64,000 nt of DNA from Selaginella moellendorffii (Eukaryota > Plantae > Lycopodiophyta). The notes below the pieces were generated by a model. The model saw nothing but the letters and a program-made list of their open reading frames with translations, did not search any database and was not told the DNA's origin. The stretch is from positions 1,330,493 through 1,394,492 of the forward strand of contig NW_003314277.1 of assembly GCF_000143415.4 (NCBI RefSeq), given 5' to 3'. Made by a program: the position numbers and the translations under genes. Position 1 is the first letter of the stretch; every line of letters begins with the position of its first letter. Positions 2,991 through 27,015 of the stretch are shown here, one piece after another.

Positions 2991-3510
2991 TCTCAGACTC
3001 AAACTTGGACTCGGACTTGAACTCAGACTCGGACTCGAACTCGGACTCGGACTCGAACTCGGTCTCAGCCTCGGCCTTGGCCTCGGTCTCGGTCTCGGTC
3101 CCGTCTTGGTCTCGGTCTCAGTCCCGGTCTCGGTCTCGACTTCGGACTCCATCTCAGGTCCATCTCGGACTCCATCTCGGACTCCATTTCGGACTCCATC
3201 TCGGGTCCATCTTGGACTCCATCTCGGACTCCATCTCGGGTCCATCTCGGACTCCACCTCGGGTCCATCTCGGACTCCATCTCGGGTCCATCCCAGACTC
3301 CATCTCGGCGGACTCCACCTCGGGTCCATCTCGGACTCCATCTCAGGTCCATTTCGGGTCCATCTCGGACTCCATCTCGGGTCCGTTTCGGACTCATACT
3401 CGGATCCATCTCGGGTCCACCTCAGACTCCACCTCGGACTCCATCTCGGGGTCCTTCTCGGACTCCACTTCGGACTTCAACTCCGGTCCATCTCGGGTCC
3501 ATCTCGGACA
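2990..3510. repeat. Tandem repeat (CTCGGA, CTCGGT, CTCGGACTCCAT units)
   Basis: Visible directly; produces the low-complexity ORFs seen in several frames. Confidence 0.9.
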
Positions 3511-3631
3511 CTTCCACGTGTCATACGCATAGATGCCCAATATGTATGATTTTAAATTTAAGGGTAGGAATATACCTTGCTCAAGTATTTTTAAGTAGCC
3601 ACTAATCAATGGGAATCGAACCATAGCATTT

Positions 3632-3643: not shown

Positions 3644-4286
3644 CATGTAACACATTCTATCTCTCTCCCTTTAAGCTAACTAGAAAAGGGGCAATTGCTT
3701 GATGAAAGAACCCTTAGTAGCTATTTTATCCTCATTTATCCCCCAAGGTTCCAAGGATCCACGGTGACAGTATATCCAAATCTCATTTTATGATCATATG
3801 CGCTACACTTACCAAGTTGCACAAATTGTTATACACCTGCATAGATATGGTTTTTCGAAAGCTAAGGTTGAGATGAGGCTACATAATACCATTGAGCTCA
3901 TGGTTTATTGATGGTGATGGGAAAGGAAAAATGCGACAAGCTTAAAGAGCTTACTTTGTGAATGCCAAGCTTTTACACTAGGCAATCTAACCATGTATCA
4001 CGACTCCGGGGCATCCCCTGCTTGGTGGTGTGCCCAAGCCAGACCGAAAAATGAGTGTCTTCATATTCTAAACTGTCACCACGCCCTAGTGAGTTGGGAC
4101 TCGAACCCAAGCACTAGAGGGTTGATATTCGAACCCAACCTTTGTATATGCATTTACGGATGGCATCAGCTAAGATGCCTAGCGTGACTCCCCACGTTGG
4201 TGCACCAATTTATACTTTAAGTGCGCTACAGATCACAGCTTAGGAACCTATTTCTTCCGCACTACTAAGTCCTCTCACTTAACAAG

Positions 4287-6974
4287 TTTGTGATCATGCA
4301 TGGACTCCTCCATGCTTAGCCCCATGGGCCACAACATGGGGGTGGTTAACTTTTGAAGTTAGCACTTTCAACTAGGGTATTTGTTCCCTCTGATTTGTTA
4401 ATCTCGTTTAGTAAGTCATCCGACCACTGTAACATGGTTTATGCATAAATATGAAAGTCCTTAACCATCGACTTTCATTTAAACCCATCCCTTTGAACAT
4501 TTAGAAACACTCCCCAACTTTGATAATTTTGCCTTATGGCAAGCTTCAAAACTATGCTTTTGCTGCGCCACTCTGATTTTGCACGTTATATGAACCATTT
4601 ACACTTACTTTTCTAAGTACTAGGTAGCTACCTAGAATTGTCTTTGGGAACTTTGAAGGAACTCTAGCTCTTAACTTGCTAAGGCCTTTCCTTTTGCAAG
4701 GTTTTTAATTGTTATATAGTCTAATATGGATAATTCAATATTTTAGACTCTCTATGGCATCACGATTGCTAATAATAACTGGCTCGAGCACCCACTTGAT
4801 TATCCACTCTCAACTCGCATAACCACCTTTGGTTAAACCCTTCGCTTCTTATGATTCGGTTTTATCCCTTTATTACTTGTTTTTTGGCCTCACACATTTC
4901 CTTTGGTTATTCTCCTCTAGTCCAGAAGGATAGATTTGCACCTTCTACCATACCTTAGCAAGTATTCATAGGGATGAACCTACTTGGTAGCATAGGGAGT
5001 GGTTCCTCAATCTAGGTATGCTCACCTTGTAATCCCACACACTAGGATTAATGTTGCTACTTATGGGCTTTTATATGCTCATCACTAGCCTTACCAAAAT
5101 CCTATTTTAGCTTTGTCCAATTTGGGTAGATGGACTTCTCCCATCTCCGTAACCTTAGACGTTTGGATAGCACCTTTTATTCATTATTCGTTTGGGACTT
5201 AGTCCTTTGTGCCTTATTTAATGCCCTCACAACACCAAATACCACTTCTTGGTGTTTTAGAGTGTTTGGGTGCCCCAATGATGTCCATTTTTTACAATGA
5301 ACATTCCTTTTACGACATTGATTTACTATATCGCAACATAAGCAATTTATCCCCCATAAAGGTATATTTAACTTCCTTATCCTAATAAGAAGTCTTGGGT
5401 AATTACCTTCTACCATTTTGATTAATTATTTTGCACCTTTTGCTTAGTTGCTTCATAGTTGTTAAGTTCTACAACTCATTGTTAGTGCTTTCACATCTCC
5501 ATCATTATTTGAGTCACCACACTTCAGCTGCATGCCTTCTAACTTAGGTTATGCCATTCCCACTTCCATTAGAATTCCTTTAGGAAAAGGTTTTCATGAA
5601 CCCACTAACTTGACTTCAAGGTATCACACTTTGGCACATTCAGTATCTCTACACCATTGGCTCCATGACCCTACCTTTATGACACTTCTTACTTATTTTC
5701 TTTTGGGAACCTTTTTCCCACGAATTTAGTATGGCATATTCTGCCATCAATGAGATATCTATTGTTTTTATACTTGGATCTTATGATCCTCCTCATCCTT
5801 CGTAGGCGCAACACACCTCAGTCCAAATGCTTCTACCAATCCCTTAAGACCATTCTTTGACTCTACTTGAGTCATCCAACTTTTTGGACTTTGTTAATTT
5901 GATGACCCGTAAGGTCCTACTTTTGAGGTGCCAGCTCGTTGGAATACAACTTTTTATATCCATGTCGTACTCATAAGGACCATCTTTGTAAATGTTATTC
6001 TAACACTTGATTATTTTCTGTTCCCTATAGCCTACCTTTGCTCCTTAGGACTATCCATCCATATGATGAGAATACTGACTCATCCTCTGAGCATACCCCC
6101 AACTCCTTGGGTTTGTTCCAACTTTTATAAAAGGTAGCCTTGGCTACAATTTCAAGGACTTGTGTCCTCATCCGTATTTGACCTCTCACGGTCATTAATT
6201 CCAGCCTCAAATTCATGAGCACCAGCCTTAACTATATGAGGATAATCTTGTGACTCCTTTATTGTTTTGAAGTCTTTATCTTTCCTGTGATCCCACTATA
6301 GTTTTTTACCATAACTATATTAGCCAGTTTGTTAAGTTAAATGGTCATCTGGATCACATCCTCAACTCTCTGAGGAAAACCTTATACTATTCCCAAGATC
6401 CCAAAGTCGCTCCCTCATTGGCTCATTTTTTATCCAACACATTGCTAACAGGTTCACTTATGAACTAAAGTGAAGAGCCATGCCCTTTCGACACGCTACT
6501 CCTTGAGGATAAGCCTTCTAATGCTAAGACAAGTGATGATATACTTGACCACCAATAAAAGTCGGACTAAGGAACAGCTTCAATACCAAATTGCAAGCGA
6601 CTAATTTTTCCATTCTACTTTAGTCACTTAACCACACCTCTGATCACTTGGAGGAGTCTTAGTCACAACATTGATAAGTCCAATTTAGGACTTGGGGCTT
6701 GCTAGCCCCAAAATTGGCATCCATACCACTCAACCTTTGCACTTGGTCTAAGTGCTCCGTGTGTCCAATCCTATGACCGACACCCAAAGGTTTCACTAAT
6801 ATATCAGTCTGTTACACTAAGGCCATGCCTATACACCTTTGTCACATTGGTGATCCAACACCACCTATATCACAATCCCATCTCTCAAACATTGGGCTAT
6901 CTGTCTATAAGTGGTCATCCCAGATCCACTTCTTAGCATCCTTAGGATGCCCGCAAACATGGGGAATAGCCTTC
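4287..6974 (-). mobile_element. Decayed LTR retrotransposon: 5' LTR part (6592-6974), degenerate PBS (6577-6588) and eroded internal region
   Basis: Minus-strand PBS-like TGGTATTGAAGC next to LTR end ...CGCTTGCA; the LTR matches 18276-18787 in inverted orientation; internal region full of stops. Confidence 0.6.
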
Positions 6975-6998
6975 AAGCTCTATTTCGTTAAAGTGGGA
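6975..6998 (+). repeat. Left terminal inverted repeat
   Basis: aagctctatttcgttaaagtggga, the exact reverse complement of 18252-18275. Confidence 0.92.
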
Positions 6999-8107
6999 TT
7001 TATTCAGTAAAATGGGACTAGGTACAAATTTTCAAGTATTTGAAAATGACGTGAAATTATATGTTTTTTGTCCAGGGGCTAGACATATCTGGGGCATGGT
7101 GACTAGCGCGGTGACCTTATGTCCAGACTGAGTCCATCTAGTTGTATAATAAATCTCATTGTCAAGGTGAACAAGCCGAATCTGAAGCTAAAGAAGAGCG
7201 ATGGCATGCGCGCACACACTATTTGTTTGTTCATTGAGCGTGTGGTGAGCTTTCCAAGATGAACATCATTCCTATTAGCCAGACATATAACTTAATGGTG
7301 AGAACATTTAGATATTATTCAATGTTATCTTTTTCTAACGAATCTAATTGTGAAGGTGTAGCAAGAGGCATTGCTAGTCTGGAGAAGTCATTTAACTCAT
7401 TTGACCCTTAGTGTATTTTCATGAAACTAAATAACATTCATATTATTAAGGAATTTCTCTAGTACCTTTTTTTTACGACATAGAGGCTTGCATTTCTTTC
7501 AAAGGTGATTTAGTAAAAGGCCTGAGGGCACATGCCATTCTATTTCTCAGACCGGTATTAAGATATACTAGTGCAAAGGGAAAAAGGTATTTGGTGATCA
7601 AGTAAATGGCATGAGGGCACACGCCATTATAAGCCTAAGCGCTAGTGGACACCTCCTTTTTGGTACTCTCAGTGGTACTATCATCCTTCTCCGGGTCAGT
7701 TGTTTTGCTTTGGATTGTTGTCTCTGACGTTACTGGGGCGTTCTCGATAGTTGTTAATGTTGCCGTTTGTTCAGAAAAATGATCACCTGGAGTATAGTAC
7801 GGGGAGTTTGGAAGACTTATATATTCTACATCTTCACCTATCTCCTTCTCCGTCTCCTTTTCTACCTCACTTACAGATTTTGTGCTTGCCATGAGAACGC
7901 TCTTCACCCTAAAATATGGAGTTCGTTGTGTTATAAAAGGAAACCAACACACACACTGCAAGGGAATGATGGTACATAAAGCACGTAAGCCCACAATATG
8001 GGTTTATGTGCCATTAATATGGGCCACATGCCATATTATTAGATTTATGCACGTGTGATTGGTAAATGCATATGTCACATCATCTTTGTTTTACCTCACA
8101 CACTATA

Positions 8108-11100
8108 TCAAGCCTCCTCTGATTCAGATTCGGATTGTTCACCTTGAAATAAAATACATTAAAAACTTTGTAAAGGAATATTAATGAATCTCACCTTGAA
8201 CCCGAGTTATGAATGCTCTTGCTGCATCTTTTGCATGGTCTGGCAAGGTGATGGTGGCACTCTGCTTCCGCATCCAACCATGCACAACATTATCCACCGA
8301 TATGCTCATGCTGGGATCCCTTGGATTCAGCACCCATCTCTTTTCTAGGCAATCCTTCGTATATCCGGAACTTGGCTTGAACCACTCCACAGTTACATTG
8401 AAGGAGTTAGTTTCCGCGTCCTCCTCTGCATCAGTGATGCAGCGCCCCACCCATATCATTTGTTTTTTATTACTGGGTCTGACAAGCACGACCATTCCTT
8501 TGCAGACCTGTACTGGATTGAATGCTGAATCCGGCTTCTTGTTCCTCGGCCCACAATAGTGATCCTCAACATCGTTATCTGTCACTGCATTTCCAGAGGA
8601 CATTGTTCCGCTACTATCTGGTGCTCTGGGTTCTGGCCAAAAGGACTCTTCCAATTCTTCATATACAACCGGCCCATTTTGGATAGCAGATATAATCTTC
8701 TCCCAGTATTCGAGCAAAGGCTTGCACCTCTAAAAATAGGATTCTCCACCAAACACCAACCCCCTCTTCCAGAAGGCAATATGCTGTCTAATCCCGGCCA
8801 CTATACTTTCCTGGTCTTTGAGTCCATCCGGGTGCATCGGCCGTGGGGAACCCTGAGGAATCATAGGTTCCCCAGTTATGGGATCTCTCTTGAAGAGTTC
8901 AATGCCGTCCACTGGCAGCCACACTGTGTCCCATTCTCTCATCTTGTACCTCATCACTGGAGCACCGTCACACATGCTGAAATGAAACTGAAGAGGCTTG
9001 GAGTGGCCAATCAGCGTTTCGGATCCATCCCTGATGTAGCCTCTTACAAACCCCTTAAAGTCTGGAACCTCTGTCAGAAGTGCAGCTTCAACAGTGCCTT
9101 TGATGCAATTTTGGAATTCATCGTAGAGTTGTGGGAGGGTGAGGACATTGGATCGCCGGAGGGACTCTGCCAGGTGACTGAACATGGCATCGACGTCTTC
9201 ATGAGTGTGCCCAACCATGAGAAAGCCAAGTGTAACCGTTTCAAATATGCCTTTGGCAACAAGCATCGCCAAGTACGCGAAGACGTACATGTTTTTGTTC
9301 TCACTGCCAGCATTGTCTGTTTGGAGCAGAAGATGGGGTGGAAGGCCACATCGGCCGCAAGAACTTCCTTGAGATTCTGCTTCGTTTGGATGAGGCTGTG
9401 CATTCACCGGGCGACCAGCCTCGTCGGAATGGCATGAGGCCTCACGTGATAACCCTACAATCTGACGGCCAACATATTCACTGGGATGGCATGGGGCCCC
9501 ACGCGATACTGCAAGCCTTTGCTCCTCCTCCAGCTGAACCCTGTATGGGGTTCGATCGACAAGGGCCTTATGCAAGGGTTGGCCGTTCAGCTCAGTCTGC
9601 GCACTTTGCAGAGACCTTAAGTGTTTTGCTAGGGACGCAATCATCATGTTTGCACCCCCGCCACCCCATAGAGGTACAAAGAAGTTCCCATAGTTCTGGG
9701 CACCATGCCCATGAGCGATTATGCCAAACAGAGACACAGGTAGCTGCATGGATGAAGAGATTGCCTTGGGGGCAGGATTGAGTCGAGGTAAGCACGTCTT
9801 TTTCTGGTCCATTTTGTCGTGGATGATGAAGAGGTAAGAGTCAGGTCTCTCCATGGAGAGAATCCTGTTATGATAATATGCAGTCCTGCAGCTTCTCTGC
9901 TCGATGTTGTGGTCGAGCCGCCTTCTAACCAACGTCTCTCGCTCTTGAGCGCTGCAAGAATTCTTCGACAAAGCTATTTTGATAGCAGTGCACTCGTCAC
10001 ACTTTGAAAAGCTGGAGTACTTTCCTATACTCACATCCCTGAACCTGTTGCTCCACAATCTACTAAATCTAGATTGGCTCAGCTTCCTGTAGCCATTACT
10101 CTGGAGTTCCCGATTCACATCTTCCAATATGGCCCCCTTGGTATACATGGAAGGGAGAACTCGTTGGGTGTCTCGTGTTCCATCTTCCAAGAGGCGGGTT
10201 TTATGTGGTTGCTGCTCGCTACATGTCTCGACAAACCTCTTGAAGATTGCCTCTCCATATACAACATGACCCCTGGTTTTGTGCGTACCGTCGTTCCCAT
10301 GGACTGCCTGTTGAATCCTTTATTCCTCGAACTCAGTTTTGATTCTGTAGAATGTGGTTCGAGGGACTCCATAAATGATTCTCCATGCCTTCATGCAGAC
10401 CAAACCCCTCTGGAAGACCATGCCCCCCACCTGATGTTCTGAAGCATCAATAGATGACCGTAATGCCTCATACACAAAATTGCGAGCTGCCTTCCAGGAC
10501 AATGTCTTGTATCTTGCTCTCTCCTCTTCAATAGCATCCCAATCAGCATGTTGACAGCACCTCCTCTTGCAACAAGCAACTGTCGAGACCATTCGAACCT
10601 CCATCGCCATTTTCTGCCTTTTCGGTTCGTTGCTTAGATCCCTTTGGCTGCGCTTTAGGAAGGTGTACTTTCTTTTCCCATGAAGAGATGTTCTGTCATC
10701 AGTTGTAGTGGTGTTTGATTGTGAATCCTTCACATTCTCAAACACTAAGTGCCTCAATTTCCACCGCACAATGCTTCCAATAGTCAGACTGTTTTCTTCT
10801 GTGTCAACAACCTCTAAAATCGCAACTCCAATATCATCCCAGCCCAATTCTTGATTAGCAACCGCATCTCTTGGATCGACAACTGTGGCTAAGCCCTCAG
10901 CTACCACCTCCCCCTCGGGGTTGTTTAGAAACACTTTTGCCTGAATCCATGTAGCACAGTTCTTAAGATCCACGGAGGGAACATGCGTCGCACTTGCGCT
11001 GTCCCCAACATCTGCTTTCTTCTGAAGATTTTTCAAGGCAACAACAACATTTACCCCGACGACCATCTCTCCTCGTTCAATAGCGACCACATTCCCATCG

Positions 11101-11249
11101 AAGACAGTCTCTACTGATACAGCAGCATTGCCTTCCCCAAGCCTTTCACAGTGTATAACAAAGTTCCGATCCATAGACACAAGGGTCCCTTTTGCAACTC
11201 TCTTCCCACCATTCAAAATGTAAACCTTTTCCCCAACCCTGAAGGCCAT
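8108..11249 (-). pseudogene. Sola-like RNase H-fold (DDD) transposase, ~1,030 codons, with two in-frame premature stops
   Basis: ORFs 10320-11249, 8730-10190 and 8181-8717 share one frame, split only by TAA (10320-10322) and TAG (8730-8732). Motifs: CCKRRCC, SKCDEC..H, IIHDKMDQ, QTDNAGSENKN, GHTHEDVDAMFS. Probable short last exon ending TGA at 8108. Confidence 0.8.
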
Positions 11250-11616
11250 TCTGAAAGTGCAGAAAAGAAGTTAAGACCATACAAAAAATGATTGGAGAAT
11301 GGCCTAAATCATAACATACCAAACAACCTCAATAGCATGAGGCCACATGCCATTATTCAAACATGCTATTGACACCCACGTGAAATTTCGCATTCACAAA
11401 ATTGGCATGAGGCCTCATGCCATCTTGATATACACACAGCTGCAGGCAAGTAAAAACATACATGACAATACACTAGCCATGAAATTGCAAGGGCCCAAGA
11501 TGGCATGTGGCCTCATGCCATTTCTAAATGTGGTCCTAAGCCATTCCATGGTGAACATACCAGGAAGCACAAGTGCCGAATATCAAGAGGAAGCGGTAGC
11601 CACACCAAAGACAGTG

Positions 11617-11760
11617 CCGCTCGCAACACCGCAACTACTCGTAGCGCCGCTCGCAACACCGCAACTGCTCGTAGCGCCGCTCGCACAAACTGCCACTCGC
11701 ATAAACTGCTGCTCGCAATGGCGCTCGCAATGCCGCAACCGCTCGTAGACGCATAAACCA
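11617..11760. repeat. 30-bp tandem repeat (GCCGCTCGCAACACCGCAACTRCTCGTAGC) in the divergent-promoter region of the transposon
   Basis: Two near-perfect units followed by degenerate units. Confidence 0.8.
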
Positions 11761-12289
11761 CAGCCCACAACGCCGCTTACACAAGCAGCGCTCACTGCGC
11801 TCAGCGGAACCAAGAACACGGCGCACAAAAATGATAGACCTAGGAATGAGTTCGAGAATTCAAAAATAACACACGCTTGAACGTCACATCAAATCCTCTG
11901 ACAAACCAGATCTTATGATTCCTCTGACAAATTTCAAACTGAGTAGCTTCTAGACTTTGCTGTCGGAGGTTGAACTTTGTCACATCATGTCCTTGCCTCG
12001 ATCCAGCTGTGCCATGTCAGTGATTCGAACTTTGCCATGCCATGTCAGCGATCCGCGCCAAGATTATTCGCCGTGTAAAGGAATAATTACGCTGTGTGTG
12101 TACGTCCATTTATGGCAATATAAGGCCACACGCCATTCAAAGAATAATGCTCGACATAAGGCCACACGCCATTCAAAGAATAATGCTAGTCGAGCATTTT
12201 TTGGTGCATTTTTGGGTTCAAAATTGCATGAGCCCACACGCTATAAAGTTTACCTGTACCAAAAATAGAAACAGCTTTATTTACTTGGG

Positions 12290-12389
12290 NNNNNNNNNNN
12301 NNNNNNNNNNNNNNNNNNNNNNNNNNNNNNNNNNNNNNNNNNNNNNNNNNNNNNNNNNNNNNNNNNNNNNNNNNNNNNNNNNNNNNNNN
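12290..12389. other. Assembly gap (100 N)
   Basis: Run of N. Confidence 1.
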
Positions 12390-12581
12390 ATTCAGTACAC
12401 ATTGGCATGCACCGATTGGGCTCTCGAGTGCAGTCCGGTTACAGATGGCGTGTAGCCTCACGCCATCTTAGGATGCAGCCTCAAGACATCTGATGCAGTG
12501 GTGAATGGCGTGTGGCCTCACGTTATTTCCAGCTGCTAGCTTTTCATCTGTCAGCTCTAATTGTTGTGCATTTTTGAACAG

Positions 12582-15500
12582 GCGAGGAATTGCGTTCTTC
12601 TTCCAGCCACTGTCAATGTGGATGCAGAGAAGGGGGAGGAGCTCACCAGTTGGACTTTCGGGATGGAAGGCGAGGATCTGATGCTGTACAACACAGATGG
12701 TGGGAGAAAAGAATGCATGGGGATCCTCATCCAAGTGACAAACACTCCATGCAGTTCCATGCAAGAATATGGACTGGCACTTGTGGTAGAGACAGCGTCC
12801 GCCTTCAAGATCCACCTTGCACATCCTAGCGGCTTCCCGGAGGGGGGCAGCGGCTATGAGGAATTCCTAGAGGGAGCTAGGGAGAGGTTGTCCAGGAGGC
12901 CCACAATTTCAAAGACGCTGCGGGTCTATGAAGATCACATGGAATCCACGGACCTCACCTACGGCGATGTTCAAAAACTATATTCCAACATTGAGCCGTT
13001 GAGAGTGCCTCCAGTTTGCGAAGCGAAGGGGAAGGGGGTCGATCTGGAAACTACCCCGAAGCAGAAAAGGGTGGTCAAGCTCAAGCCGACGTCCGACTCT
13101 GCTGCTCCAAAAAAGAAGCTACTCGGTGATGCCATTGCCTCGGGTTCGAACACTACACCCACCAAAAAGAAGAGCCGCAAAGAGCAGAAAGAGCAAGAAG
13201 AGGCAGCAAAAATCGTCGCAGATAATAGTACTTGTTACTATTCCAACAAAGTATATACAATCGACGTGAGCCGTATCGAGATCCAAAGCAAATACAACCA
13301 CAGGCTAGTATCTGATGAGTGGGTGGAGAAACTGAAGCAGAAGATGCTGGCAAGTCCAGTAACACCCGACATCGCAGACGTGATCCCCTACTACCGAACA
13401 ATGAAGGGCGAGACGAGGTTTCCAGACTTGATCAATAGGAAGGTGTTGGACGATCAGAACATCCGGTTCTATGCCGTCTCCGGGCAGCATTCTAGCTTGG
13501 CGATGCAACAGATAGTTGTGGATATTATGGTGGGCGAGGAGGTGAAGAAAGTCTTCAAGACAAGAGTTGTCCGCCTGATAAAAGGCAACTCGCCCCTCCG
13601 ATCTATCATATACATCTCCCACGCGCAAAATGTCAAGCAAGAAACGTGCTACAAATCGGGTCTGCACGAGACATTGGCACGAACACGGAAGCTCTGGGTT
13701 CAACTGAAGAAGCCACAAAAACCAGGACAAGGACGTGCACTAGCAACTAGCGCCTGGCAGGTAAGCCTCGTTGCATGTGGCATAGCATGTGGCCTCACGC
13801 CATTTCCATTGCAGGAATTCTCGAGTCTTCTCTCGAAAACACTGGGGGTCAATGACACACTCAGCATCCATAACATTCTACTCGCGACAAAAGTTGTTTT
13901 TGACAAATGGGTAGATGTGCTAAGGAGGTACCATGACGGGGAGTTGCTAAACTCAATGGGTGTGGAGGACGGCCGGAAGCCCAATGATTTGAAGCTCAAC
14001 GCCTTGCGTTTCTCGCGGTCTCTAGACGACGACGACCTTCTGACAGTGGCTAATGCTCTTCTACGTGGTGAGGTAGTCTTCAACAAGACCAAAATGACTC
14101 CCGGCCATATTGTGACATACGAGGACTTGTGCACGACTCTGAGAGCTCGTGCGCTATTGAAGGATTGGATCTTCGAGCAAGTGGCCGTGGCGAGGGTGAG
14201 CATCGACACCACGCAAGAGATGATGGAAGAGCTGGACTTGTCAAATGAAGACATCGACGAGTACGTGAAGGGGGCCCCCAAGTTCATCGATCTGCTGCGG
14301 GATGCCACGAAAAGTAAAGCTGAGAAGTTGGATCAGTATCCAAATTTCATTAAGAGGGATGTCGACCGCCGGCTTCAGAAACAGCTCGACCCCGCAGCAG
14401 AGGCCTATCGAGAACCTTACCGGGTATACGTGAATTCGGATGAGGATCAAAGGTGGAGGAGCATCGTTTCCCGCGGAGATGAGCAGGTCAAGAACATCTT
14501 TTGTGTGATGGACTTCACAAACGAGGAGATCACTCATGCAGACGAAGTCAGCTCCATCATTGACTTAATGGTGGGACTTGCGGAGGTGGAATCTTCAGTC
14601 CACTATATGATCTACGACTCCGAATCCTATCACAAGTTCTGGAAGGCCTTGAACGAGGTGAAGGCTCGGTTGAAAGGCAAGGAGATGCGGGAGATCCATG
14701 GGATAATGGCTAAGAAGAAGATACCGACGAATGTCCGCATCTTCACAGTCGCCCTTGTTATTGGTCCTGCAGCAGAGTGGGACTGGAGTGACTTCCCAGC
14801 TTCGTTCAACAAAGCCGATCGAATTGATCTGAGGGAGGTCAATTTACCCGTGCCTGAGGAACTGAAGACGGCTATGGAGCTTTCGAATCCAAAGAAAGCT
14901 CCAGGTGCAGCATGGGAAATGCTCAGCTGGGTCTTCAACGCAATAGCGGGTGACTCCAAGGGCAAATGCGTTGTCGAGTACAACTGCGGCGGACTATTCT
15001 TTCGAGCCGCACTACTNNNNNNNNNNNNNNNNNNNNNNNNNNNNNNNNNNNNNNNNNNNNNNNNNNNNNNNNNNNNNNNNNNNNNNNNNNNNNNNNNNNN
15101 NNNNNNNNNNNNNNNNCATGTTGGGCCGAGCTCACAACCTGCACAAGGTAAGGTCACGTGAGGCCTCACGCCATTTTGATTATAGATCGTTGTGAATATT
15201 CAGACACGAGGACTGAAAAGCGCACTGGTGGCGCGTCGAAGAAGGACAAACAGACAAGCAATAGGAAAAAAGGAGGTACAAATTATATTTGCAATGGCGT
15301 GTGGTCTCATGCCATTCCTTGCAGGAGACACTTCTTCAAAGGCAAAACAGGCAAGCACCAGCCAAGCTCAAACTGACAGTGGTCATAAAAAGCGAAAGCA
15401 CGTTGGACAGTCGTCGGGATCAGAGGCGTTTGATTCGAAAAGGAAGAAGGGCAACGAAAAGATGATAGGTAATGCCTCGCGGTTATGGCGTGTGTGCTCA

Positions 15501-17844
15501 TGCCATTCATTGCAGATCAAGGGCTGAGTGAAAGGAGCCAGTCACCACCTTCTGACTCAGATTCCTATGGCGGACTCCCCTTCCCCAATCTCAATGGAGA
15601 GGTACAATGGATGAGGGATGCTTTTCAAGTCAGGGCCACGTTTTTCTCATCTCGTCATCTTCGAAGGGTGCAAGAACGTGCAGAAACCATGTTAAGACAG
15701 TCGGGTGAGGATACGGTCCTAGGTCACGCACTAAAACAGGCTATGGATGTCTTGTATTTTGAGATGGAGACTCGGCCAGATGATTTTTCCAAGATGGTCC
15801 TGGAAAAACAAGCAATCCAGCCTGAGCAGCCTATGGAAGAAATGCAAGAGGGGGATGAGGAGCCAGAGAAAGATAATGAGCAGGAAGAGCAGAAGGACGA
15901 AGAGGAGGACAAAGAAGAGGAGGACGAAGAAGAGGAGGACGAAGAAGAGGAGGACGAAGAGGACTTGGATGGTCCTCACAATGGTGACGATCACAATAAC
16001 GACGATGACGATGATGACGATGATGGCCAGCCTGAGGTGGCCAAAGAGCAGCGGAGGAAGGTCATACAAGACAAACCATCAGGTAAATAATAGTACATCC
16101 ATTCCTAACCTTTTACCATTTCTAACATTGTCCATGTAGGTTGCAGAAGAAATGGTAAGTAGAGATTATTCAGTTGAATTAAGATACAAACTCTAGCCTT
16201 TAGTGTCGAGGAAGGATAGTGCCAAGCAAGGGTCGAAACGTATGTCCAATCCTTCAGAATCAGCAGTGCGCCCAAGTGATATCGGTCCTAGTTCCTCAAT
16301 AGCAGTTGATGGTAAATACAGTATAGTCGATTCAATGTGCTAATGAGTTTGTTTTTAGTAGCACGGGAGGATACCATCTCAATCGAAGGGAGATATTTGG
16401 ACATGCATATGGATCCGCCAGTGGACTCTACTTGCCTGCAAGAGTCATCAGAGCTGGTGGAGGCTACTATCCATATCAACGCCAAGCAAGCTGACCACGC
16501 TCCACTTGATGCTGCCCATACCACTGAGTCAATCTTGTCCACGTATCCAACTGACGGTGACCAGGCGCCATTGGACCCGCATGAGGCCGCCCCAGCCGCC
16601 GAGCCGGTCGTATCCTCATTTCCAACGTGTGCCCAATCGTCTGACTACGCGCCGTTGGAACCTCCCTACACCGCCCCTGCTGCCTGTTCGGTCATGTCCA
16701 CTTTGCCAACGGAGGCACCAGCTGAAATGGCGTGTGATCACACGCCATCGGAACCACCCCATGCCACTGTTGAGCCAGTTGTACCAGAGTCTACAGCTGA
16801 AATGGCATGTGCCCACACGCCATCGGATGCGATTGACCCCACATTGCAGAGGAGAGTATTTCCGCCCTTCACGTTTCCTCGACCAAAACCCTCTGAACGA
16901 CCATCGGGAGCACCATTCGCTAATATTGTAGATGGTAAAATTGACTTGTACCATTTTTTATGCTAACGCATTTCATTTCAGAGTCACGGCGAAAGTACTG
17001 TATCGTTTTTGATCTGAACGGTGTCCTTTTCTCCCATGAGCGTGGCTCGTCCTCGAATGTCACTGCACCCTCCAAAGCCTGCGGTCGCAAGTTGGTCAAA
17101 AGAGACAGATTCACATTAATCACACAGGAGAAACTGCGGGATCTAATAATGACCATGCGACACTTAAAACAGAGGGCCGGGTTCAATTTGCAATTGGGAG
17201 TTTGGACATCCATGATGCGCCACAATGCATTAACGTTGCTACAGATGATGCACGATCAGACGCGAGTAATATTACCATTTGACTTTCTCCTAACGCAGGA
17301 GGATTGCTTGACTATGGTCCATGTGAGGGGTAGCAATCCCATCTTCGTCAAGGCAGAGGCTGTAGTGATGAACCAGACTGCTAGGTCAAGTGAAATCCTC
17401 ATCATCGATGACTCGCCGATTAAAACTGCAGCGAACACGCACACATATGCAGTGCACCCCATCTCTTGCAGTATGGAAACTAGGGAGAAGAAACCGTATG
17501 TTCTGGGGGACCTTGCAAAACGGCTTGAAGCGATGGTGATAGAGAACCGGCCAGTCCAGGAGGTGGCTGCAGAAATCAACCAAATGGCAGATGGAACGGT
17601 ATATCAGAAGCCATTTGATCGGACAGACACCAGTCATCATTTATGGCATGTATATTGTCTAGCCAAGCACTATCCGCATCTCCATAATCTGCTCAACCGG
17701 ATGGGTTCTTCGACCACTGAACATGAGCGTGGACGTATTAGAGAAGAGATGGCATTACTATTGGGTTTAAATCCTGATAGTGTGGAGAGTGATGAAATTC
17801 CAAGATTATTGTATAGGCGTTGGAGGCAAAAAATAACAGTCTGA
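12582..17844 (+). CDS. Transposon cargo gene, spliced, ~1,600 codons: ParB/Srx-like domain + degenerate MTase-like region + acidic linker + FCP1/NIF-type HAD phosphatase-like domain (5' end unresolved)
   Basis: GT-AG introns at 13761-13814, 15148-15203, 15276-15324, 15469-15515, 16083-16139, 16155-16203, 16312-16358 and 16935-16981 link the separate ORFs in one frame. Motifs FYAVSGQHS, CIVFDLNGVLF, VWTS, IIDDSP. Confidence 0.75.
15017..15116. other. Assembly gap (100 N)
   Basis: Run of N. Confidence 1.
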
Positions 17845-18251
17845 GATGGCATGTATTTATTTAAAAATGTAACTTATTATGGCATGGGGTTCCATGCCAT
17901 TGTATTAATATTAAAAGACAATTCTTTGAGAGGATTTGCATTATACTAGAAGTGTTACAGCATGTTATTGGAAGTCTACGAAGTTGTTTTATTAATAAGG
18001 GGAAAGTAAAGATTGAATGGGGACTTGGGCTCCACCTAGACTCGGAGCAACTGAGCCAATATTAAAAGGATGGAAAGAAATTGGACGACGATGACAAGGA
18101 GAAGAGAGAGGTGAAGCAGTGAGAAGTGATTGAGTAGACATTTCCTTGTTTAAAATAAAATGGCATATGCCTCAATGCAGTTGAATTTTGTTATATTTAT
18201 ATACTATATAAAGGTTTGGAAACCTTATTTTACAAGTGGGATAATGACAAT

Positions 18252-18275
18252 TCCCACTTTAACGAAATAGAGCTT
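18252..18275 (-). repeat. Right terminal inverted repeat
   Basis: tcccactttaacgaaatagagctt; an extra inverted AAGTGGGA copy at 18234-18241. Confidence 0.92.
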
Positions 18276-18787
18276 TGGTGAGGAAGTCCCAGAGGACTGT
18301 GGGACTTAGTGGTCGGGCCTGTGGGCCTCGATCCGGTGGCAGTGTTGGCAAACATGGCCAAAGGCAGAAAGGGACTTAGTGGGGACTGACAGAGGGATAT
18401 TGGGGAAGGCTATTTCCCTTGTCAGTGGGCATCCTAAGGATGCTAAGGAGTGGATCTAAGATGACCACTCACGGATGGTGTGCCTAGTCTTGGAGAGCCA
18501 AGACTGTGATGCAAGTGGTATTGGACTACCAGTGTGGCAAAGGTGATTGGGCATGGCCTTAGCATAACAAGCTGCCATGTCGGTGGTACCTTTGAGTGTC
18601 GGTCATGGGATCAGACACGTGGAGCACTTGGACCAAGTGCAAATGTTGAGTGGCATGGATGCCATTCTCGGGGCTATCAAGTCCCAAGTCCCGAATTGGA
18701 CTTATGGAGGTTGTGAATGAGACTCCTCCAAGTGGTCGGAGGTGTGGTTAAGTGACTAAAGTAGAATGGAAAATTTAGTCGCTTACA
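18276..18787 (+). mobile_element. LTR 3' portion ending ...CGCTTACA, abutting a Gypsy RT coding region
   Basis: Inverted homology to 6592-6974 and 2194-2510; CA terminus directly followed by RT codons (KCV..YLG). Confidence 0.75.
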
Positions 18788-21290
18788 AGTGCGTGTTGGG
18801 GTGTAAGGACACAACTTATCTTGGGTACTGTATTTCTCGTGTGGGTTTGCAAGTTGATCCTGACAAACTTGTAGCAATTCTAAAGTTCTGTACTCCGAAG
18901 TGTGTGAATGATGTGCAGCGCTTCCTAGGCAAGGTGCAGTATCTCAGTCGTTTTGTGGATCATTTTTCTGATCACACTGCACCGTTGCGAGCGTTGCTGA
19001 AGTCATCAACATCATTTTTCATATAGTCTTCAGATTGTGAGTGGGCATTTGTGAATCTCAAAGAGCTATTGACGACTCCTCCGGTTTTGGCATATCCTGA
19101 CTACACTCAACCTTTTATTTTGCGCGTAGATGCTTCTGATATTGGTCTTGGAGGTGTGTTAATGCAAGAAAGCCTGAGTGTGCCTGGTCAGCGTCATCCC
19201 ATTGCATATATAAGCTGTACGTTATAACCAGCAGAGGTGAACTACTCCATGACAGAGAAGGAGTGTTTAGTGGTAGTTTGGGGTTTCGAGAAACTTCATG
19301 CATATCTACATGGTTCTCAGACGTTACTTGAAGGTGACCATGCTACTGTTACTTCATTATTGAAGCGGAAGAACTTGGTTGGTCGTACTGCTCAGTGGGC
19401 TTTGAAGCTTCAGATATATGATTTTGATATTGTTCATCGCCAAGGGAATTCTATGGCTGATGTTGATGCCCTTTCTCAAGCTCCTCTTCTTTGTTTGCTC
19501 TCTTCTCATGTTTCTGATGAGTATGTTGTTCCAGTATCTGTGGATTTTCTAGATAAGGATTTTGTGCCGTTGGCGGTTGCTGTACTTGACGTTCAGTGTC
19601 CACAAGGTGCAAAGCACGATCTACCTTCTCTTGATGAGGTTCGCAAGGCTCAAAAGATTGAGCCGTGCATTTGAAGGCTTCGAGATGCGTTTGAGAATCC
19701 TGCACCACTTACTGATGACTTGCCTTTCGGCATTTACATTCTCAATATCGCCTTGAAGATGGCCTTGTTTATTTTGTGGGGACGGATCCTGATGATTATT
19801 TACGGCTGGTGGTGCCTTCTGTCTTTATTCCGCAATTTCTCCATGCCTACCATGATTCTCCTGTTCTAGGTGGGCAAATGGGACATCGTCGTGTGACCAA
19901 GAAGCTGCACAGGTCTTTCTATTGGCCGGAGATGCGACGTGATGTTATCCAATATGTGCGTAGCTGCGTTTGGTGCCAAGCTCGTAATACTCCCCCTTGT
20001 CCTGCGAAAAGACGATTGGAGTCAATTATAGTTTCCCGTCCGTTTGAGTTAGTGGCATTTGATCTTATGGGACCTTTTCCACGGTCGACTGCTGGCAATG
20101 AGTATGTTATTATTGCTTCTGACTACTTGCCTCGTTAGGTGGAAGTTGGTGCTCTTGCTAGTGCCTCTGCAATTGCTGTTGGATACTTCCTCCTCATTCG
20201 AGTGGTGTTCCAGCATTCTTGTCCAGAGCTAATTCTTTCGGATAATAGTCTTGCATTTATGGCTGAGGTATTTCATGTTTTGACGTCTCAGTTGGGGATA
20301 CACTACACTTTCACAAGTGCTTATCATCCACAATCAAACAGTTTGGTGGAACGGATCGTTCAGACATTCAAAGGGATGATTGCGAAGTATGTGAACTTTC
20401 AGCATTCGGATTAGGATGGTTATTTGCCGTCTCTTCGGTATGCCTATGTCACAGGGGTGCAAAGTTTTGTTAGTGTGGCGATGCTAAAAGCTGGGCCTTA
20501 CATCCTCCTCTCCAACATGTATGCTCTTGGCGAGCGCTTGGGTCTCCCATCAAAGTTCTTCCTTCTTCCATCCAATCAAAAATATAAACTTTTATATGGT
20601 CATGATCCAATATTACCAATAGAACTGGGTTTACCTTCGCGATTGCGACGAGCTCCCGATGCTAGGTCATGGGATCAATATTTGACGAGCATTCTTCCAC
20701 TTGTCCGAGCAGAGTCTGCCGAACACTTAGGACGCGTATAAGTGGGACAACAATGGCACTACAACTCCTATCATCGTCCACCTACAGAGTATAAAGTGGA
20801 TGATTTGGTGTTGGTCTGTTTTCCCCATCTTACAGTACGTGGTTTATCTAAGGGGCTCCTTGCGCAGTGGAAAGGACCGTATCGGGTGTTGCGGCAAGTT
20901 GGACCACAAGTTTATGAGGTTCGGCATGACGTTCAGCAGGCCAATCCTCCGGAGATTGTGCATGTGCAGCGGTTAAAACGCTTCATACAAAGGGATCAGG
21001 AGCAGTTAATACCATCTACAGATCCACCAATGCCTCCTCCTGACGTTCCTCCAGATCCCGGCCCATCTACAAGAAAACCCTGAAGGCCTTCTATTGTTCC
21101 GAGAGGAGGGGATGATGTGAGGGCCAAATGTACAGTTACAATGCCGTATATTAATATTAGCGTAGTGGGATTTTGGTAGCCGTTGGATTGGTTTCAATCC
21201 AGACCACTTGCTCTTGTATATAAGCTAGGGTTTTTAGGTTAATTGATATGCACATTCCTGTATTCCCTTTCCATATTCCAAGCACTCACA
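18788..21290 (+). mobile_element. Ty3/Gypsy pol relic (RT end, RNase H, integrase), PPT and partial 3' LTR
   Basis: DVQRFLGKVQY, VDASD, NYSMTEKECL, Zn-binding H/C, FDLMGPFP, AYHPQSNSLVER, WKGPYRV; several stops; PPT GAGAGGAGGGGA 21101-21112 followed by TGTGA at 21116. Confidence 0.92.
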
Positions 21291-21419: not shown

Positions 21420-22300
21420 GTTATATGCTTGCTCCTTATGGTCCTGGAAGAACCTAAAGATGATCACATCTCTGCACTTTCTCACTCCAAGCTGGATGCT
21501 GCTGCTCCTTACATCTTTGAGCTCATGGTCAAAGATGTTGGATGTCTTGCCACCGCCTCCAAAGTCATCAAACTCAGAGAATTCATAGGTAAGTTTATCT
21601 CTGGTGTGTTCTGCCAGGTTTTATTTGGACTTGATCAGCCTGATTGAGAAGCAGACCCTGAGCATCAATGTCGGGAAGTTCATACCACCACTTGATTATC
21701 TTGATCTCCATGGAGTGAACCAGAGAATAAGGGACGATCTGATGCCAAAGTTGCAAACTCGAGATCGAATCCTCGGGCCAGGAATTGATTCCCAAGGACT
21801 GGACGGATGTGCTTCTGTCTCTGCAAGACGCTGCTGATAATAATCTCTCAGACATGGCCCTGCTCACTGTAAGTAAACGCAAAGTTCTTGATCTGGTTGC
21901 AGCTGAATTGACAACATGAAGGGAGCTGTACTGGGTGATGGCAGTCATGCAAAAACCGCATGAAGAAATCCAAGACGCAATTGGGACCAAACGCCTCCTA
22001 CATGCACGCAATCCTGAAAGAGGCATTAGCCAGCTACACGGTTCCTTGGAAAGCGTTCAGGACGAAAGTCTTCTGGGTTAGGCCAATGTTTTTGATCTCT
22101 TCCTATAGGCAGATGTTGATTCGGGAGATGATCCCATTCTCTGCTGGATGCAGGATGTGCCTGGGGCATCCAGTTGCTGTTCGTTTCATCCCCTTCGCAG
22201 TTTTGCAAGCCCAGCCTTCCACCGGATCAAAACTTGGTCGACCTGATAGAGAAACAAGCAAGCTGGCTTCATGGCTAACTTTGCAACTCCCCGGCTGAGC
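21420..22300 (+). pseudogene. Cytochrome P450 fragment (copy A)
   Basis: YMHAILKEAL (K-helix) and IPFSAGCRMCLG (heme motif); frameshifts; PERF segment inverted. Confidence 0.8.
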
Positions 22301-22444
22301 TGCAAATCTCTGTATGAATGAGGGTGAAAACTGTCAATTCACAAAATAAAAAGCATTATGCACTTACATGAACTCATTGAAAATCTGATGAAAACAAGTT
22401 TTCCTAGTCCCATCGAAGAACAAGTTTAAGTTGGCATCGAGGAA

Positions 22445-23812
22445 ACATTCAAACTTCTGTTGTAGCAAGACCTGTAGCACGGTTTCGACGTAAAGGCCGA
22501 GAAGCATCCCTTGAGGCATGTCCTCGGAGCTCAAAACCTCTTGGGCCGATATGCTCTGTTCCTGGTCCGCATGAAATGGTTCCAGTCCTCTTGGACGAGC
22601 TGCAAATCCGCAAGCTTGGAGCGAAGGCCCTGGCAGCAGTTGGCGTGAATGGTGCAAACTCTTTCCATGTCGCTGGCTGGTTCGCAAAACCCACTGAACA
22701 CCTCCGTTGGCATGAACCGGATCTTGGCTCCTATGGCCTGGAACTCTGCGTGGAGCTTGATCCTGTCGAAGACCTCCTGGTCGTGGATGTGGTAGTAGAA
22801 CTTAGCATGCCTGTCCCAGTACTTGAAGAGCTCGATCGTCCGGTTATTGGATCTCACGTGCATCAACCCCGTGTTGTCCTGGTTGTGAATGTCCGTCTCG
22901 TTGCCATTGAAAAAATCGCAAGCCAGATCCACGTCTGCTTCCGGAGAGAAATTCGAGAAGGGATTTCACAACCACAAGACGTCTGCATCCTGGAGACGAT
23001 TCCTGGAGAAGAAGTTAGCACAGGAAGTCAAAGAGAAAGAGGTGCAAATTTCTACCGAGAAGATGAAGTTAGAAGAATGTCTCTGCTGAAAAGTCCACGC
23101 CATTGCTCTCGAGGAGGATGCAGTGCGAATGAGCTTCCAGGCATTTCTTGTGCGCAGATGGATCCAACGTGAAGATCACCAGCGTCGGAAGAAGGCGGGT
23201 TGTATCATCACCAAATCCTTAAAATTATATGTATTTTATTATAACTTAGCCTTTTATATAAGAGTGCATAAAAGTCTATTAAAGTTTTATATTAAAATAT
23301 GCATTTAGAGCAACTTGTTTTCGATAGTGGGGAGCAAGTATTTTAAAACTCATTTAATAAACAAAGAGAATTAATAAAGAAATCAATGCTAGTATTTCTT
23401 TATCTCAGAAATAATTAAAGCTTTTAAATGTAGATAATAACTAAACCACCATACTAGCTTAGCCAGGAAGTAGGATAGCAGTTTTGAAAGCCTTATTCAA
23501 AGGAGTCACGATGACAGTCTTGTTAAAAGCAGCTTCCTTCAGCACAGTTTGAAGATTGTGAAACTTGTCTGCGGTCTGAAAAAATACAAAAAAAGGAAAG
23601 AAAGAAAACAGTAATCAGTCGAATAGAAGAGGATTTAACTTACCAAGCTGTTGATGCTATCAGCGGCAATCCAGGGTAACAGTAGCATCCAAAAGGCTGC
23701 ACTTGTAGGCCAGCTACCTGTTGTACCACTGTGGCTCCAGAGACAAGTCCAGTTGTAGACGCTGAAAATATAGAACAGAACAAGCAAGCCCGGTCTGCTA
23801 CGGCACCTCATC
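22445..23812 (-). pseudogene. Nucleotide-diphospho-sugar transferase (GT77-like) pseudogene (copy A)
   Basis: Homologous to 38513-39713, with deletions, a 3' frameshift and a ~245-bp AT-rich insertion at 23213-23460. Confidence 0.85.
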
Positions 23813-23977
23813 ACTGGAAAAAGAAAAAGAAAACACAAAACAGTTGTAACTTGGGGAAATCACAGCCATTGATCCGGTTGACTTGGCCCATTTTTTGCCA
23901 ACTTGGGTGGAGCTCATACGTATATCTGCACACCCCCTCCCCCTTCACCCAAGTCAAAGCCTGGGTTTCAGAGAGCT

Positions 23978-26300
23978 ATGGAGGACATAATGAGTTCGAT
24001 CAATGTGATTTCTGAGCTTGCGCCAAATGCCAAAGCGTATCCTCGCCTGTGCAGGCTACTGTTTCTGGTATGCAGTCGACATGCCCGGTACTGCCCCATG
24101 TGGATCAAATGCGGGGTCAAATCTCACCTCTCACCATGGATCAAATATGCGGCCTTGGAGCGCCTTACCCATCTATTAGCTAGGGTGAAGAAATTTCTCA
24201 GGCAATGCAGTCATAAAAAGCACTGGGAGTGGATCGCTGCATCCAGGTATGACAGGAGATGGGAAGTTGTGGAACTTCTGTCAGAGCTTCAGGAATGTGT
24301 GGACATAATCAACTCGGAGACAATTCGAACGTCAGAGGGTATTTGGGCCCGTGTTCTTGAGCGGCTGTCCGATATTGAGCAGGAGCAGGATCTGTATTAT
24401 GACCTCCACAGTTTGGCAAACGAAGATTGTGACGAATTGGTGAAGAATGCAAGTTCAGAGGAGCTTGTCGAGTACTTATCTCAAAGACAAAGCGGCTACT
24501 GTCCAAGGATAACCATGGAAGATTGGCCTACTGGTCCCTTGTCTGATTTGAGACTTCGTTGGCTTGGTCAGACTGCTATACTTGTTGAGCTCGATAATGA
24601 TGAGGATCTTGAGGTGACGAGGGGTCCTTTCCTAGGTCCAAGTTCCTCTATTGTGCAGATTTTTGGATGGTGCCACTGCCACAATACCGGGAAGCGTTAC
24701 ATACTTACTGAGAATCACTACCATCGCACGTTTGCGGAGAGTAGCCACCGTAACAGACAGGTACTCACCGTTTCTCGCCTTCTGGAAGTCACTTACCAAG
24801 TTGCACAGACTGTTCTACACTTGCATAGACATGGTTTTCGGCAAGTTGAGATTGACCTGAAGTTGTATAATACCGTTGAGTTCATAGTTTATTGGTGGCG
24901 ACAGAAAAGGGGAAATGCAACAAACTTGAAGAGTTTACTCTGTGAATCATTAAAACTGTTTGTGAAGCTGGTTAAAGCTAGTTATGGTAAACAGAATGAA
25001 GAGGCCCTGAAAAAAATCATGAACCAGAGTGACTATGACTTTCCAGACATGGATGTGATAATCGATATCTTGCAAGCCTTTCGAAGACAGCACGCAGGTG
25101 TGTATAAACATAACAGGCTATGAATTTGAGCTCATGCTAGCAGGACAGGTGCTGAGTGGAGAAGCAGTTTTCAACACTCTGAGCTCCCCGGTGTTGAAGG
25201 CATTTACAGAGGCCGACCCTGCCACAGAATTGAGCTTTACAGTTCTGATGTGCCCCCTACACAGTTTGAGAACCTGCCTAAGGTGGTAAAGAAGTCGGCT
25301 CTCTATCTTAGTAGTTCATACACATCTGACTTTTGACTTTCAGGTTGTTGCAGAACTCAGCGTTCTGCAGCACCCCCACATCGTGCGGTACTATGCATCT
25401 GAGGCAGGCGTTAAAGCAATAAACTATCCATGGATTGTGAATTGCATGCTCTTCATTTATGAGGAGGACGTACCTGGAATAACACTTGCAAGTCTGTCAT
25501 TCAACGAAGATGAAGTTCGAAGATACACTTATCAGATTTTATCTGGCTTGGAGTATCTTCATAGCAAAGGCACAAGACACGGGTTCATGCTTTAAGATTG
25601 ATGGTGAAAACTTCATACTGATCTGTAGATTCTTTGTCAGGGCGCTCACAGCTGCAAACATACTTGTGGATACTTCGCATGAAGTTGTTAAGCTCTCTCA
25701 TTATGGCATCGCTTTGCAATCGGTATGTGTCTAGTCTGTAAACTCTGAAACTGTTACGATTTCCTTACCAGATTGAGGTCGTTCCTGAGATGCCGGCTGA
25801 GGTTTGTGGATTGATAATTGTGGCCACATTGCTGAAACTTGTATCTCCAGTATTCTGATAGTCTTTCAGCGGATGTTTGGAGCCTGGGCTGTGTTGTACT
25901 TGAAATGATCAAGAATGTGGAGCCACAGAGTAAATACTCAAGCACGGTTTGTATGCTCCCTTTTATTTATTTTTTTAAAAAACATTTTAAGTGGTTGGTT
26001 TCATCACAGCTCTCACACTTCTTTGGACGGGAAGTAGTCAACGTCCAATCTGGTGAGGAGGAGACCCCTGAAATGCCTGGGGACAGCTTCCTAGTCGATT
26101 GCAATTACTTTTTGCATCGGTGCTTCGAAAGAGGAACAAATAGACCCGCAGCGGCGCAACTGCTTGATCATCCTTTCGTGCGCAGGGTAAGCTGGTCTTT
26201 ACATAAACAAAATAATATGTGAGTTATTATTTGCATGCTAGGCATTCTATGACGAGTTGGAACGGCCGCGGTGGAAGAAAAGTGGAGGAAGAGGAGATTG
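23978..26300 (+). CDS. MLKL-like N-terminal helical bundle + degenerate kinase-like domain + MAPKKK-like pseudokinase domain
   Basis: LARVKKFLRQCSHKKHWEW bundle; IVQIFGWC and QVAQTVLHLH; spliced exons with HPHIVRYY, QILSGLEYLH, AANILV, ADVWSLGCVVLEM, LLDHPFV. Boundaries approximate. Confidence 0.65.
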
Positions 26301-26666
26301 AAGACAGTCCGCCTTCGTAATAAAGGAGACTGCGTTCGTAATACAAGAACTGAATGCTCTGAGGTTCCCAGGCTCAGTGATAAGGCACTTTAGGATCTAA
26401 TTTTCTGAAGATCGATAACAGAGTTTGATTGTTGTGGAGCGTGGCTCATACAAGCCTTGCCTGTTGCACAATGTAATACCAAGCGAATTTTAGTTTTCAT
26501 TACGTAAGTCATCATCCATTCATTCATATGCTTCTGCGGTGCTCAAGAAGCACGAGTGACTTTAAACACTACATTTATAAGTGAGAGATACAGATTCCTT
26601 GATCACTGTTGTAATGGATTATAATATTTACATTGGTATGCATGGTTTCTGAATTGGGGCATTTTT

Positions 26667-26905
26667 ATGGCTTCGGCGGGAAATCTCTTGTGCGTCTTGG
26701 CCATGGCGGCCACCGCGGCTCTGGCTGTGGCGAGCTCCTGGGAGTTATGCGGTAAGCGCGTTGCATTCCCTCGTCCTTTCTAGCTGCTTGGCGAATTAGG
26801 GCATAACAATCCTTGCTCTCTTCCCGTCAAGATCAAGGACGTGGAGGTCCTGCCGGATCCCGTTGTGAGCGGCCAGGATGCGGCATTCGTTGTTCCAGCG
26901 ACAAG
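26667..26905 (+). pseudogene. ML-domain (MD-2/NPC2-like lipid-binding) gene 5' fragment
   Basis: Signal peptide MASAGNLLCVLAMAATAALAVASSWELC, then VKIKDVEVLPDPVVSGQDAAFVVPAT; cut off by the duplicated block starting ~27016. Confidence 0.7.
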
Positions 26906-27015
26906 TAGGTTTTTTCTGCGGAGTTTCTTTTCCAAGTGATTATTGCGTGATTCCATGTAACATCTCAACAAAAAGCTGTATTCCCACGAGTAGGTTTTCT
27001 CTGCGAAGGTACTTA

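Follow-up and report, generated by a model that had tools for sequence, protein, structure and literature searches.

A predicted ParB-fold accessory protein without the GxxR arginine in a DUF7869 transposon of the lycophyte Selaginella moellendorffii

Transposon accessory proteins with ParB-like domains are known from brown, red, and green algae, where binding or modification of their own element is an untested proposal. In Ectocarpus, Sola1-1_Ec32 is described as carrying, opposite its transposase, a gene for a 1,104-aa protein with ParB-like and N4/N6 methyltransferase domains (PMC12477816). The red-algal Plavaka protein PAG3 is described as combining a ParB-like domain with a 2OG-oxygenase, beside inverted-repeat arrays (bioRxiv 10.1101/2025.02.11.637652), and ParB-HTH methylases are reported from chlorophytes (PMC4738411). 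Sola elements are described as rare in plants (PMC12973397, PMC9033089). A full-text literature search, with subscription journals mostly outside its scope, returned no land-plant ParB-plus-methylase transposon accessory gene and no mention of DUF7869. The locus reported here extends ParB-like transposon accessory proteins to land plants and supplies an apparently intact accessory gene, an apparently young element family, and a defined 22-bp candidate site. It lies within 64,000 nucleotides of S. moellendorffii DNA (the window), which is land-plant sequence with PPR, MADS-box, CCCH-ankyrin, and glycosyltransferase genes (as identified with Pfam) and decayed LTR-retrotransposon frames.

In the window element, the accessory gene and the DUF7869 transposase point away from each other (Table 1). 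Sola1-1_Ec32 is described as a Sola1-type element (PMC12477816), a type to which the window element putatively belongs; the two share AA...TT termini, transposase and accessory genes on opposite strands, and the order of a ParB-like domain followed by a methyltransferase domain. By the same description, the window element differs in its land-plant host, length (11.3 versus 21.5 kb), and terminal inverted repeats (27 versus 282 bp), as well as in its eroded methyltransferase motifs, extra NIF-like domain, and element-wide palindrome. PAG3 is likewise described as an accessory protein of ParB-like type whose element also carries inverted repeats, and it is proposed to bind its own transposon (bioRxiv 10.1101/2025.02.11.637652); however, that transposon belongs to a different superfamily, and PAG3 has a 2OG-oxygenase and tandem arrays beside the gene, whereas the window protein has a methyltransferase relic and a NIF-like domain, with sites dispersed in introns and exons. 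Phage fusions are described with the same order, ParB then beta-class methyltransferase (N6_N4_Mtase) (bioRxiv 10.1101/2025.10.10.680097), whereas both nucleotide motifs are eroded in the window gene. Examples of such fusions also occurred among frames of the genomes searched here, and the phage fusions are the likely ancestral source.

Table 1. Coordinates of the features discussed in the text, as positions in the window
Feature	Position	Strand	Remarks
Left terminal inverted repeat, 27 bp	6975-7001	+	96% complementary to 18249-18275; outer 2 bases uncertain
Right terminal inverted repeat	18249-18275	-	Pairs with 6975-7001
DUF7869 transposase, one 1,022-codon frame	8181-11249	-	Pfam DUF7869, E 7.5e-43; 53 relatives
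22-bp palindrome ATGGCRTG-N6-CAYGCCAT	7201-17900	.	18 sites when as many as 3 arm mismatches are allowed
Palindrome sites 1-9	7201, 7517, 7606, 9429, 9486, 11332, 11402, 11500, 12223		
Palindrome sites 10-18	12445, 12505, 13782, 15153, 15294, 15485, 16727, 16802, 17879		
Accessory gene of about 1,600 codons, splicing predicted	12582-17844	+	ORF to 15016, then spliced 15117-17844
ParB/sulfiredoxin-fold domain (predicted)	13242-13646	+	Model residues 9-143; structure searches, language-model atlas
Peptide TIDVSRIEIQSKYNHR	13257-13304	+	ORF 12561-15161
Peptide FYAVSGQHSSLAMQQI	13467-13514	+	ORF 12561-15161
SGQHS, P-motif (GxxR) with Ser for Arg	13479-13493	+	Ser codon TCT
Peptide TRVVRLIK	13560-13583	+	ORF 12561-15161
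Family-invariant Arg on the strand after the P-motif	13563-13565	+	13/13; candidate substitute phosphate contact
Peptide IIYISHAQN	13605-13631	+	ORF 12561-15161
Helical region where ParB has its DNA-binding domain	13665-14144	+	Contains 54-nt in-frame intron 13761-13814
Beta-class N6/N4 DNA methyltransferase, probable relic without PPY	14410-15016	+	P0076 sub-threshold match; family comparison
Last exon, NIF/FCP1-like HAD domain, DLNGV for DxDxT	16982-17844	+	Pfam NIF 22.7 bits, cutoff 21.8

A sequence-only reading of this DNA had proposed a ParB/sulfiredoxin-like domain from four peptides that follow the ParB N-terminal pattern. All four lie, in order, in one open frame and together span 13257-13631. 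The profile search suggested in that reading gave a divided answer. The lone sequence had no ParB, sulfiredoxin, or DndB family match in Pfam, PHROGs, or NCBIfam and nothing relevant among PDB sequences, against which the family profile returned low-complexity matches only. Home-made HMMs from bacterial genomes gave the lone protein a DGQHR score of 2.0 bits (0 of 300 shuffles as high), and for a mixed-set HMM 8 of 300 shuffles scored as high, each weak alone; a home-made ParB HMM and a methyltransferase HMM gave no match. Profile-profile comparison using the relatives, on the other hand, matched a mixed ParB/DGQHR set with a probability of 70% and an E value of 3.9e-5 (methyltransferase control, 1.1%) and the DndB/DGQHR family with a probability of 30%. 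Word-index homologue searches with the accessory protein gave 0 matches, as did a scan of metagenome and viral contigs for related loci. Matches found by tblastn against phages and plasmids (RNA ligase, primase) were judged to be chance.

Structure prediction, also suggested in that reading, gave a ParB/sulfiredoxin fold. A single-sequence AlphaFold model was unusable (pLDDT 31), and the model employed here was built from 28 input sequences; it includes 18 codons of read-through intron and has a mean pLDDT of 64. Across residues 11-160, ten-residue blocks have pLDDT values of 54-91, mostly >70, and residues 499-599 fall below 50. Foldseek against the PDB placed ParB/Noc proteins in all of the best 11 rows (E 5.1e-3 to 5e-2, none ≤0.001), and against viral models ten matches passed 0.001, with ParB/Spo0J or partitioning proteins making up six of the seven named. 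VIA-align superposed the model on Caulobacter ParB (PDB entry 7bm8; Z 10.5, rmsd 2.4, 98 aligned residues) and on 6sdk (Z 10.3, rmsd 2.4, 96 aligned residues), with best Z scores of up to 11; sulfiredoxin structures scored lower than ParB (Z 6-7.5). In a search independent of Foldseek, the top 8 rows among 48,161 PDB representatives all had this fold (PadC, pNOB8 ParB, KorB, SerK, two sulfiredoxins, SbnI, and Atu1540), and the next, unrelated row had a Z of 4.9. A language-model atlas pointed to unnamed eukaryotic clusters (0.96, 0.95), to fungal DUF3723 (0.95), and, as a lead only, to a ParB_N cluster (0.92, 132 of 256 features, the family on 35% of members). The proposed fold is thus borne out by the relatives' profile, the AlphaFold model, and the structure searches, and for the N-terminal domain it is as secure as modeling can make it.

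The protein resembles the ParB/Noc/KorB CTP clamps in its N-terminal fold (Z 9-11), a helical domain behind it, and a palindromic candidate site. It differs in lacking the GxxR arginine and in a long insertion before the P-motif; moreover, no ParA was seen in the element, and the gene is eukaryotic with predicted introns. The suggestion that a helical region occupies the place of the ParB HTH stands in part: the region is ParB-DNA-binding-domain-like at low resolution, aligning loosely on the corresponding half of ParB/Noc/KorB (rmsd about 5, i.e., 4.8-5.3 over 178-193 residues; 6t1f, Z 9.1, rmsd 5.3, 178 aligned residues) as far as model residues 307-311, but Pfam contains no HTH match for it. 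By defining residues, the domain is outside the ParB CTPase, DndB, and sulfiredoxin families, because those residues are absent; its mode of action is probably akin to that of the ParB-like accessory proteins in algae. It has SGQHS rather than DGQHR, with no Pfam DndB (PF14072) match at E values up to 1. Sulfiredoxins have a catalytic Cys in a GCHR motif; this Cys is absent, with Gln at that position in 13/13 aligned domains.

The Ser noted at the position of the GxxR/DGQHR arginine was read directly from its codon. To compare GQHS with GQHR in homologues, as that reading had recommended, relatives were collected with HMMER from 1.84 billion representatives. Among the 18 matches, P0055 and P0062 were dropped as repeat artefacts, and P0056, P0058, P0064, P0071, and P0072 cover the downstream region only, outside the motif count. 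The remaining eleven cover the motif, with GQHS in 10/11, GQHT in 1/11, and GQHR in 0/11; named relatives are from Riccia sorocarpa and S. moellendorffii. In a trimmed alignment of 13 domains (the query, these eleven, and P0076; identity 23-94%, median 30%), G, Q, and H of the P-motif occur in every domain and the last residue is S in 12 and T in 1. Other invariant residues are Arg 13563 (13/13), Asn 13629 (12/12), and Arg 13686 (12/12). Over 12399-13921, run X9 differs from the window by 4 letters, 3 of them at listed positions elsewhere, and its contig cannot encode Arg at the Ser codon because going from TCT to Arg needs at least two changes. Since the relatives lack GQHR and the X9 contig cannot carry Arg, Arg-to-Ser is, on the sequences compared, a clade trait and not decay of the window copy. 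Loss of this arginine, the defining residue for nucleotide binding by the ParB fold, has become fixed in the clade. A search seeded with this protein favors its own motif, however, and Arg-bearing cousins could fall below the search threshold, the relatives having been found with this query.

The sequence-only reading lacked the wider context, which is a eukaryotic, intron-containing transposon accessory gene together with a private palindrome. N gaps lie at 12290-12389, toward the 5' end of the gene, whose start is provisional, and at 15017-15116. Removal of seven predicted GT-AG introns, each 47-57 nt long, turns 15117-17844 into a run of 792 codons free of internal stops; the eighth predicted intron, at 13761-13814, is likewise GT-AG, and several relatives' frames stop at its donor position. 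Splicing is predicted, as contigs of five runs guessed to be RNA held no spliced joint. The predicted domain order is ParB-like, helical, methyltransferase relic, and NIF-like. The same ParB-MTase-NIF order is found in the Riccia relative P0076 (1,064 aa), which has GQHS, an N6_N4_Mtase match below the Pfam cutoff (E 5.8e-4), and a NIF match (E 1.9e-5). In the window copy, the methyltransferase-like part gave no direct match (Pfam, atlas for the C-terminal region, HMMs, and fold search), and no methyltransferase appeared among fold-search rows, where the model is too poor for that to show absence. Family-to-family comparison with methyltransferases gave an E value of 0.005 and a probability of 7%. 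The window frame and 5 aligned relatives all lack a (D/N/S)PP(Y/F) motif, the stretch within the second N gap being hidden. Taken from sequence, this segment is a probable eroded beta-class methyltransferase. NIF/FCP1 HAD phosphatases have the catalytic motif DxDxT/V, which the NIF-like domain lacks although its Pfam score is above the cutoff. Ahead of the ParB domain, 12582-13000 is a beta-rich N-terminal region with counterparts in P0057, P0059, P0068, and P0070. Four S. moellendorffii relatives (P0056 and P0081-P0083) are annotated as proteins of 379-451 aa that begin directly behind the ParB domain and comprise nothing but the helical and methyltransferase-like segments, representing either split annotation or true ParB-less forms.

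The element ends are supported by run X3, which has different flanks beyond 6977 and beyond 18275; run X7 joins 7018 to 18234 and looks like an internally deleted derivative. The window's two flanks share no 4-bp target-site duplication, and the window may join two copies across N gaps. In these flanks (6581-6974 and 18276-18798), one retrotransposon-like repeat is present twice, in opposite orientations (81%), and the two junctions fall about 130 bp from each other within it, as could arise from chimeric assembly, rearrangement, or target preference. Within the left end lies a 25-bp inverted pair (7162-7186 and 8123-8147), and at 8107-8115 runs X3 and X9 carry about 400 additional letters that are absent from the window and may represent a small nested element. 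The window transposase is broken by nonsense codons at 10320-10322 and 8730-8732; other runs have a sense codon at 10322 in 4/4 cases and at 8732 in the 3/3 that cover it. The DUF7869 protein has conserved Asp motifs and relatives in moss, liverworts, and Ectocarpus, and its alignment gave 0 matches in viral contigs; its motifs make it a putative Sola1-like transposase. Because three runs cover all 30 bins at about 99% identity and 42/63 differences of run X3 fit C-to-T decay of the window copy, we infer a young multi-copy family with copies about 99% alike, the run depth giving no copy number. Linkage of accessory gene and transposase is seen in the window's element only, the Riccia relatives lying hundreds of locus numbers from DUF7869 genes on the same contigs.

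The 22-bp palindrome is confined to the element. With up to 2 mismatches, 17 sites occur in 7000-18300 versus 0 in the rest of the window; at 3 mismatches the counts are 18 versus 0, at 4 they are 21 versus 5, and the expectation in 100 shuffles is 0.00. Ten of the 18 sites are non-coding, 4 are intronic (one apiece in introns 1-4 of the eight predicted), and 4 are coding; sites 12445 and 12505, counted as non-coding, may fall in 5' introns of the accessory gene. Introns thus hold 4/6 in-gene sites while comprising 7.9% of the gene (P 5e-4, in a comparison chosen after the fact). Contigs of four runs show one more palindrome copy just before 12399, at the first N gap; the copies bearing it are about 97% identical and have different upstream sequence. 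Matches to the palindrome in prokaryotic genomes were scattered and single and were judged to be chance.

Our leading explanation, held tentatively, is that the accessory protein is a sequence-specific, probably nucleotide-independent binder of its own element's palindromes, serving expression or movement of the element. Its computed basis is the modeled fold, the family-wide Ser/Thr, the TIR-bounded element with DUF7869 in opposite orientation, and the element-confined palindromes. The ParB-fold domain would help the protein dimerize and bind the palindrome without the CTP switch of a true ParB, the helical region would read the site, loss of the arginine would disable canonical CTP binding and sliding, and the methyltransferase and NIF parts would be non-catalytic modules. 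A static binder cannot spread and would therefore need sites along the whole element, which fits those in introns and tolerant coding stretches. Its job could be to mark the element as self and keep it expressed or movable, as VANC does for the VANDAL elements of Arabidopsis. As described, VANC is encoded by a transposon that itself carries the protein's private target motifs, and its function is demonstrated (PMC5735166); the window protein's function is proposed by analogy, and no homology is claimed.

A less probable but serious alternative is that the palindromes are transposase sites, for end pairing or self-activation, and that the ParB-fold protein is employed elsewhere, e.g., as a chromatin adaptor recruited by protein contact. 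As a control, we collected 80 DUF7869 loci from metagenomes, some of which are one locus in several samples. A private palindrome family of at least 4 copies occurs in 20/80 (shuffles give 2, in 14/14), with 0 ParB domain matches (best E value of the family HMM, 0.29); a Pfam scan of 120 of 148 selected long frames gave no ParB, no methyltransferase, and one NIF. Since ParB-less DUF7869 loci carry private palindromes, the transposase stays a candidate binder. At locus L016, the 26 copies are concentrated upstream of the transposase and toward the far end, a distribution that points the same way, and transposases are described as sequence-specific activators of cognate copies (bioRxiv 10.64898/2026.08.24.746577). 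However, most of the 80 loci are decayed or too short for an accessory gene, three groups (L016, L044/L045, and L080) retain NIF-like relics of one, and sites in the window also lie in four accessory-gene introns, far from the ends. These groups (L016/L018/L019:1299-12389, L044/L045, and L080) are decayed DUF7869 elements with their own 18-bp palindrome. Of the NIF/FCP1-like relics, those in L016 and L044/L045 are oriented away from the transposase, and a NIF-like domain may be an accessory that recurs across this group of transposons. In two further DUF7869 relatives, L001:641-1567 and L028:50-2918, an intact-looking transposase frame is accompanied by yet another private palindrome (7 and 10 copies), on contigs too short to show an accessory gene.

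In contrast to a nucleotide-independent binder of palindromes, the protein could be a nucleotide-gated clamp with a rewired pocket, in which Arg 13563 (with the box I Arg) replaces the P-motif Arg and the clamp loads at palindromes and slides; we regard this as unlikely. The near-invariance of G, Q, H, S/T, Arg 13563, and Asn 13629 at such low median identity suggests a constrained pocket, a nucleotide pocket may be retained through other Arg residues that are invariant in the domain, and the closest structures are the CTP-binding ParB, PadC, and KorB rather than sulfiredoxin. Set against this, Arg-to-Ala in this motif is reported to have abolished NTP binding in NTP-binding ParB-fold proteins, with every binder tested there losing it without this Arg (bioRxiv 10.1101/2025.10.10.680097), and B. 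subtilis ParB R80A is reported to form no foci (PMC12988329). From sequence comparison, canonical CTP switching is unlikely, and nucleotide handling by the Ser variant may be altered, as the sequence-only reading had suggested. A bolder proposal, to which we give lower odds still, is that land-plant transposons run a eukaryotic ParB/parS-like system, in which a clamp with a rewired, arginine-shifted pocket would load at private palindromes, some of them within its own introns, and spread along the 11-kb element, bringing with it a dead methyltransferase and a phosphatase-like domain to block host silencing. It is highly improbable that the gene was merely captured and does nothing for the element. 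In favor of such cargo, no catalytic motif is left in any of the three enzyme-like domains, and the transposase linkage is seen in this element only. Against it, the predicted gene runs without a break for about 1,600 codons outside the N gaps while the same copy's transposase has two stops, its introns hold the element's palindrome, and its domain order is retained in a liverwort.

The locus makes two questions directly testable, namely, which protein binds the palindrome and whether a ParB fold can act without an NTP switch or with a relocated one. If the protein and site pair does lift silencing, it would be a second plant system beside VANC.

Outside the element, the window contains a long inverted duplication at 22155-30000 (arms 22155-23882 and 28489-30000, 89-97%) near a kinase-like frame. 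Arrays of 11-12/23-bp units lie at 29-330 and 2990-3520, adjoining LTR-like direct repeats at 1845-2193 and 3962-4286.
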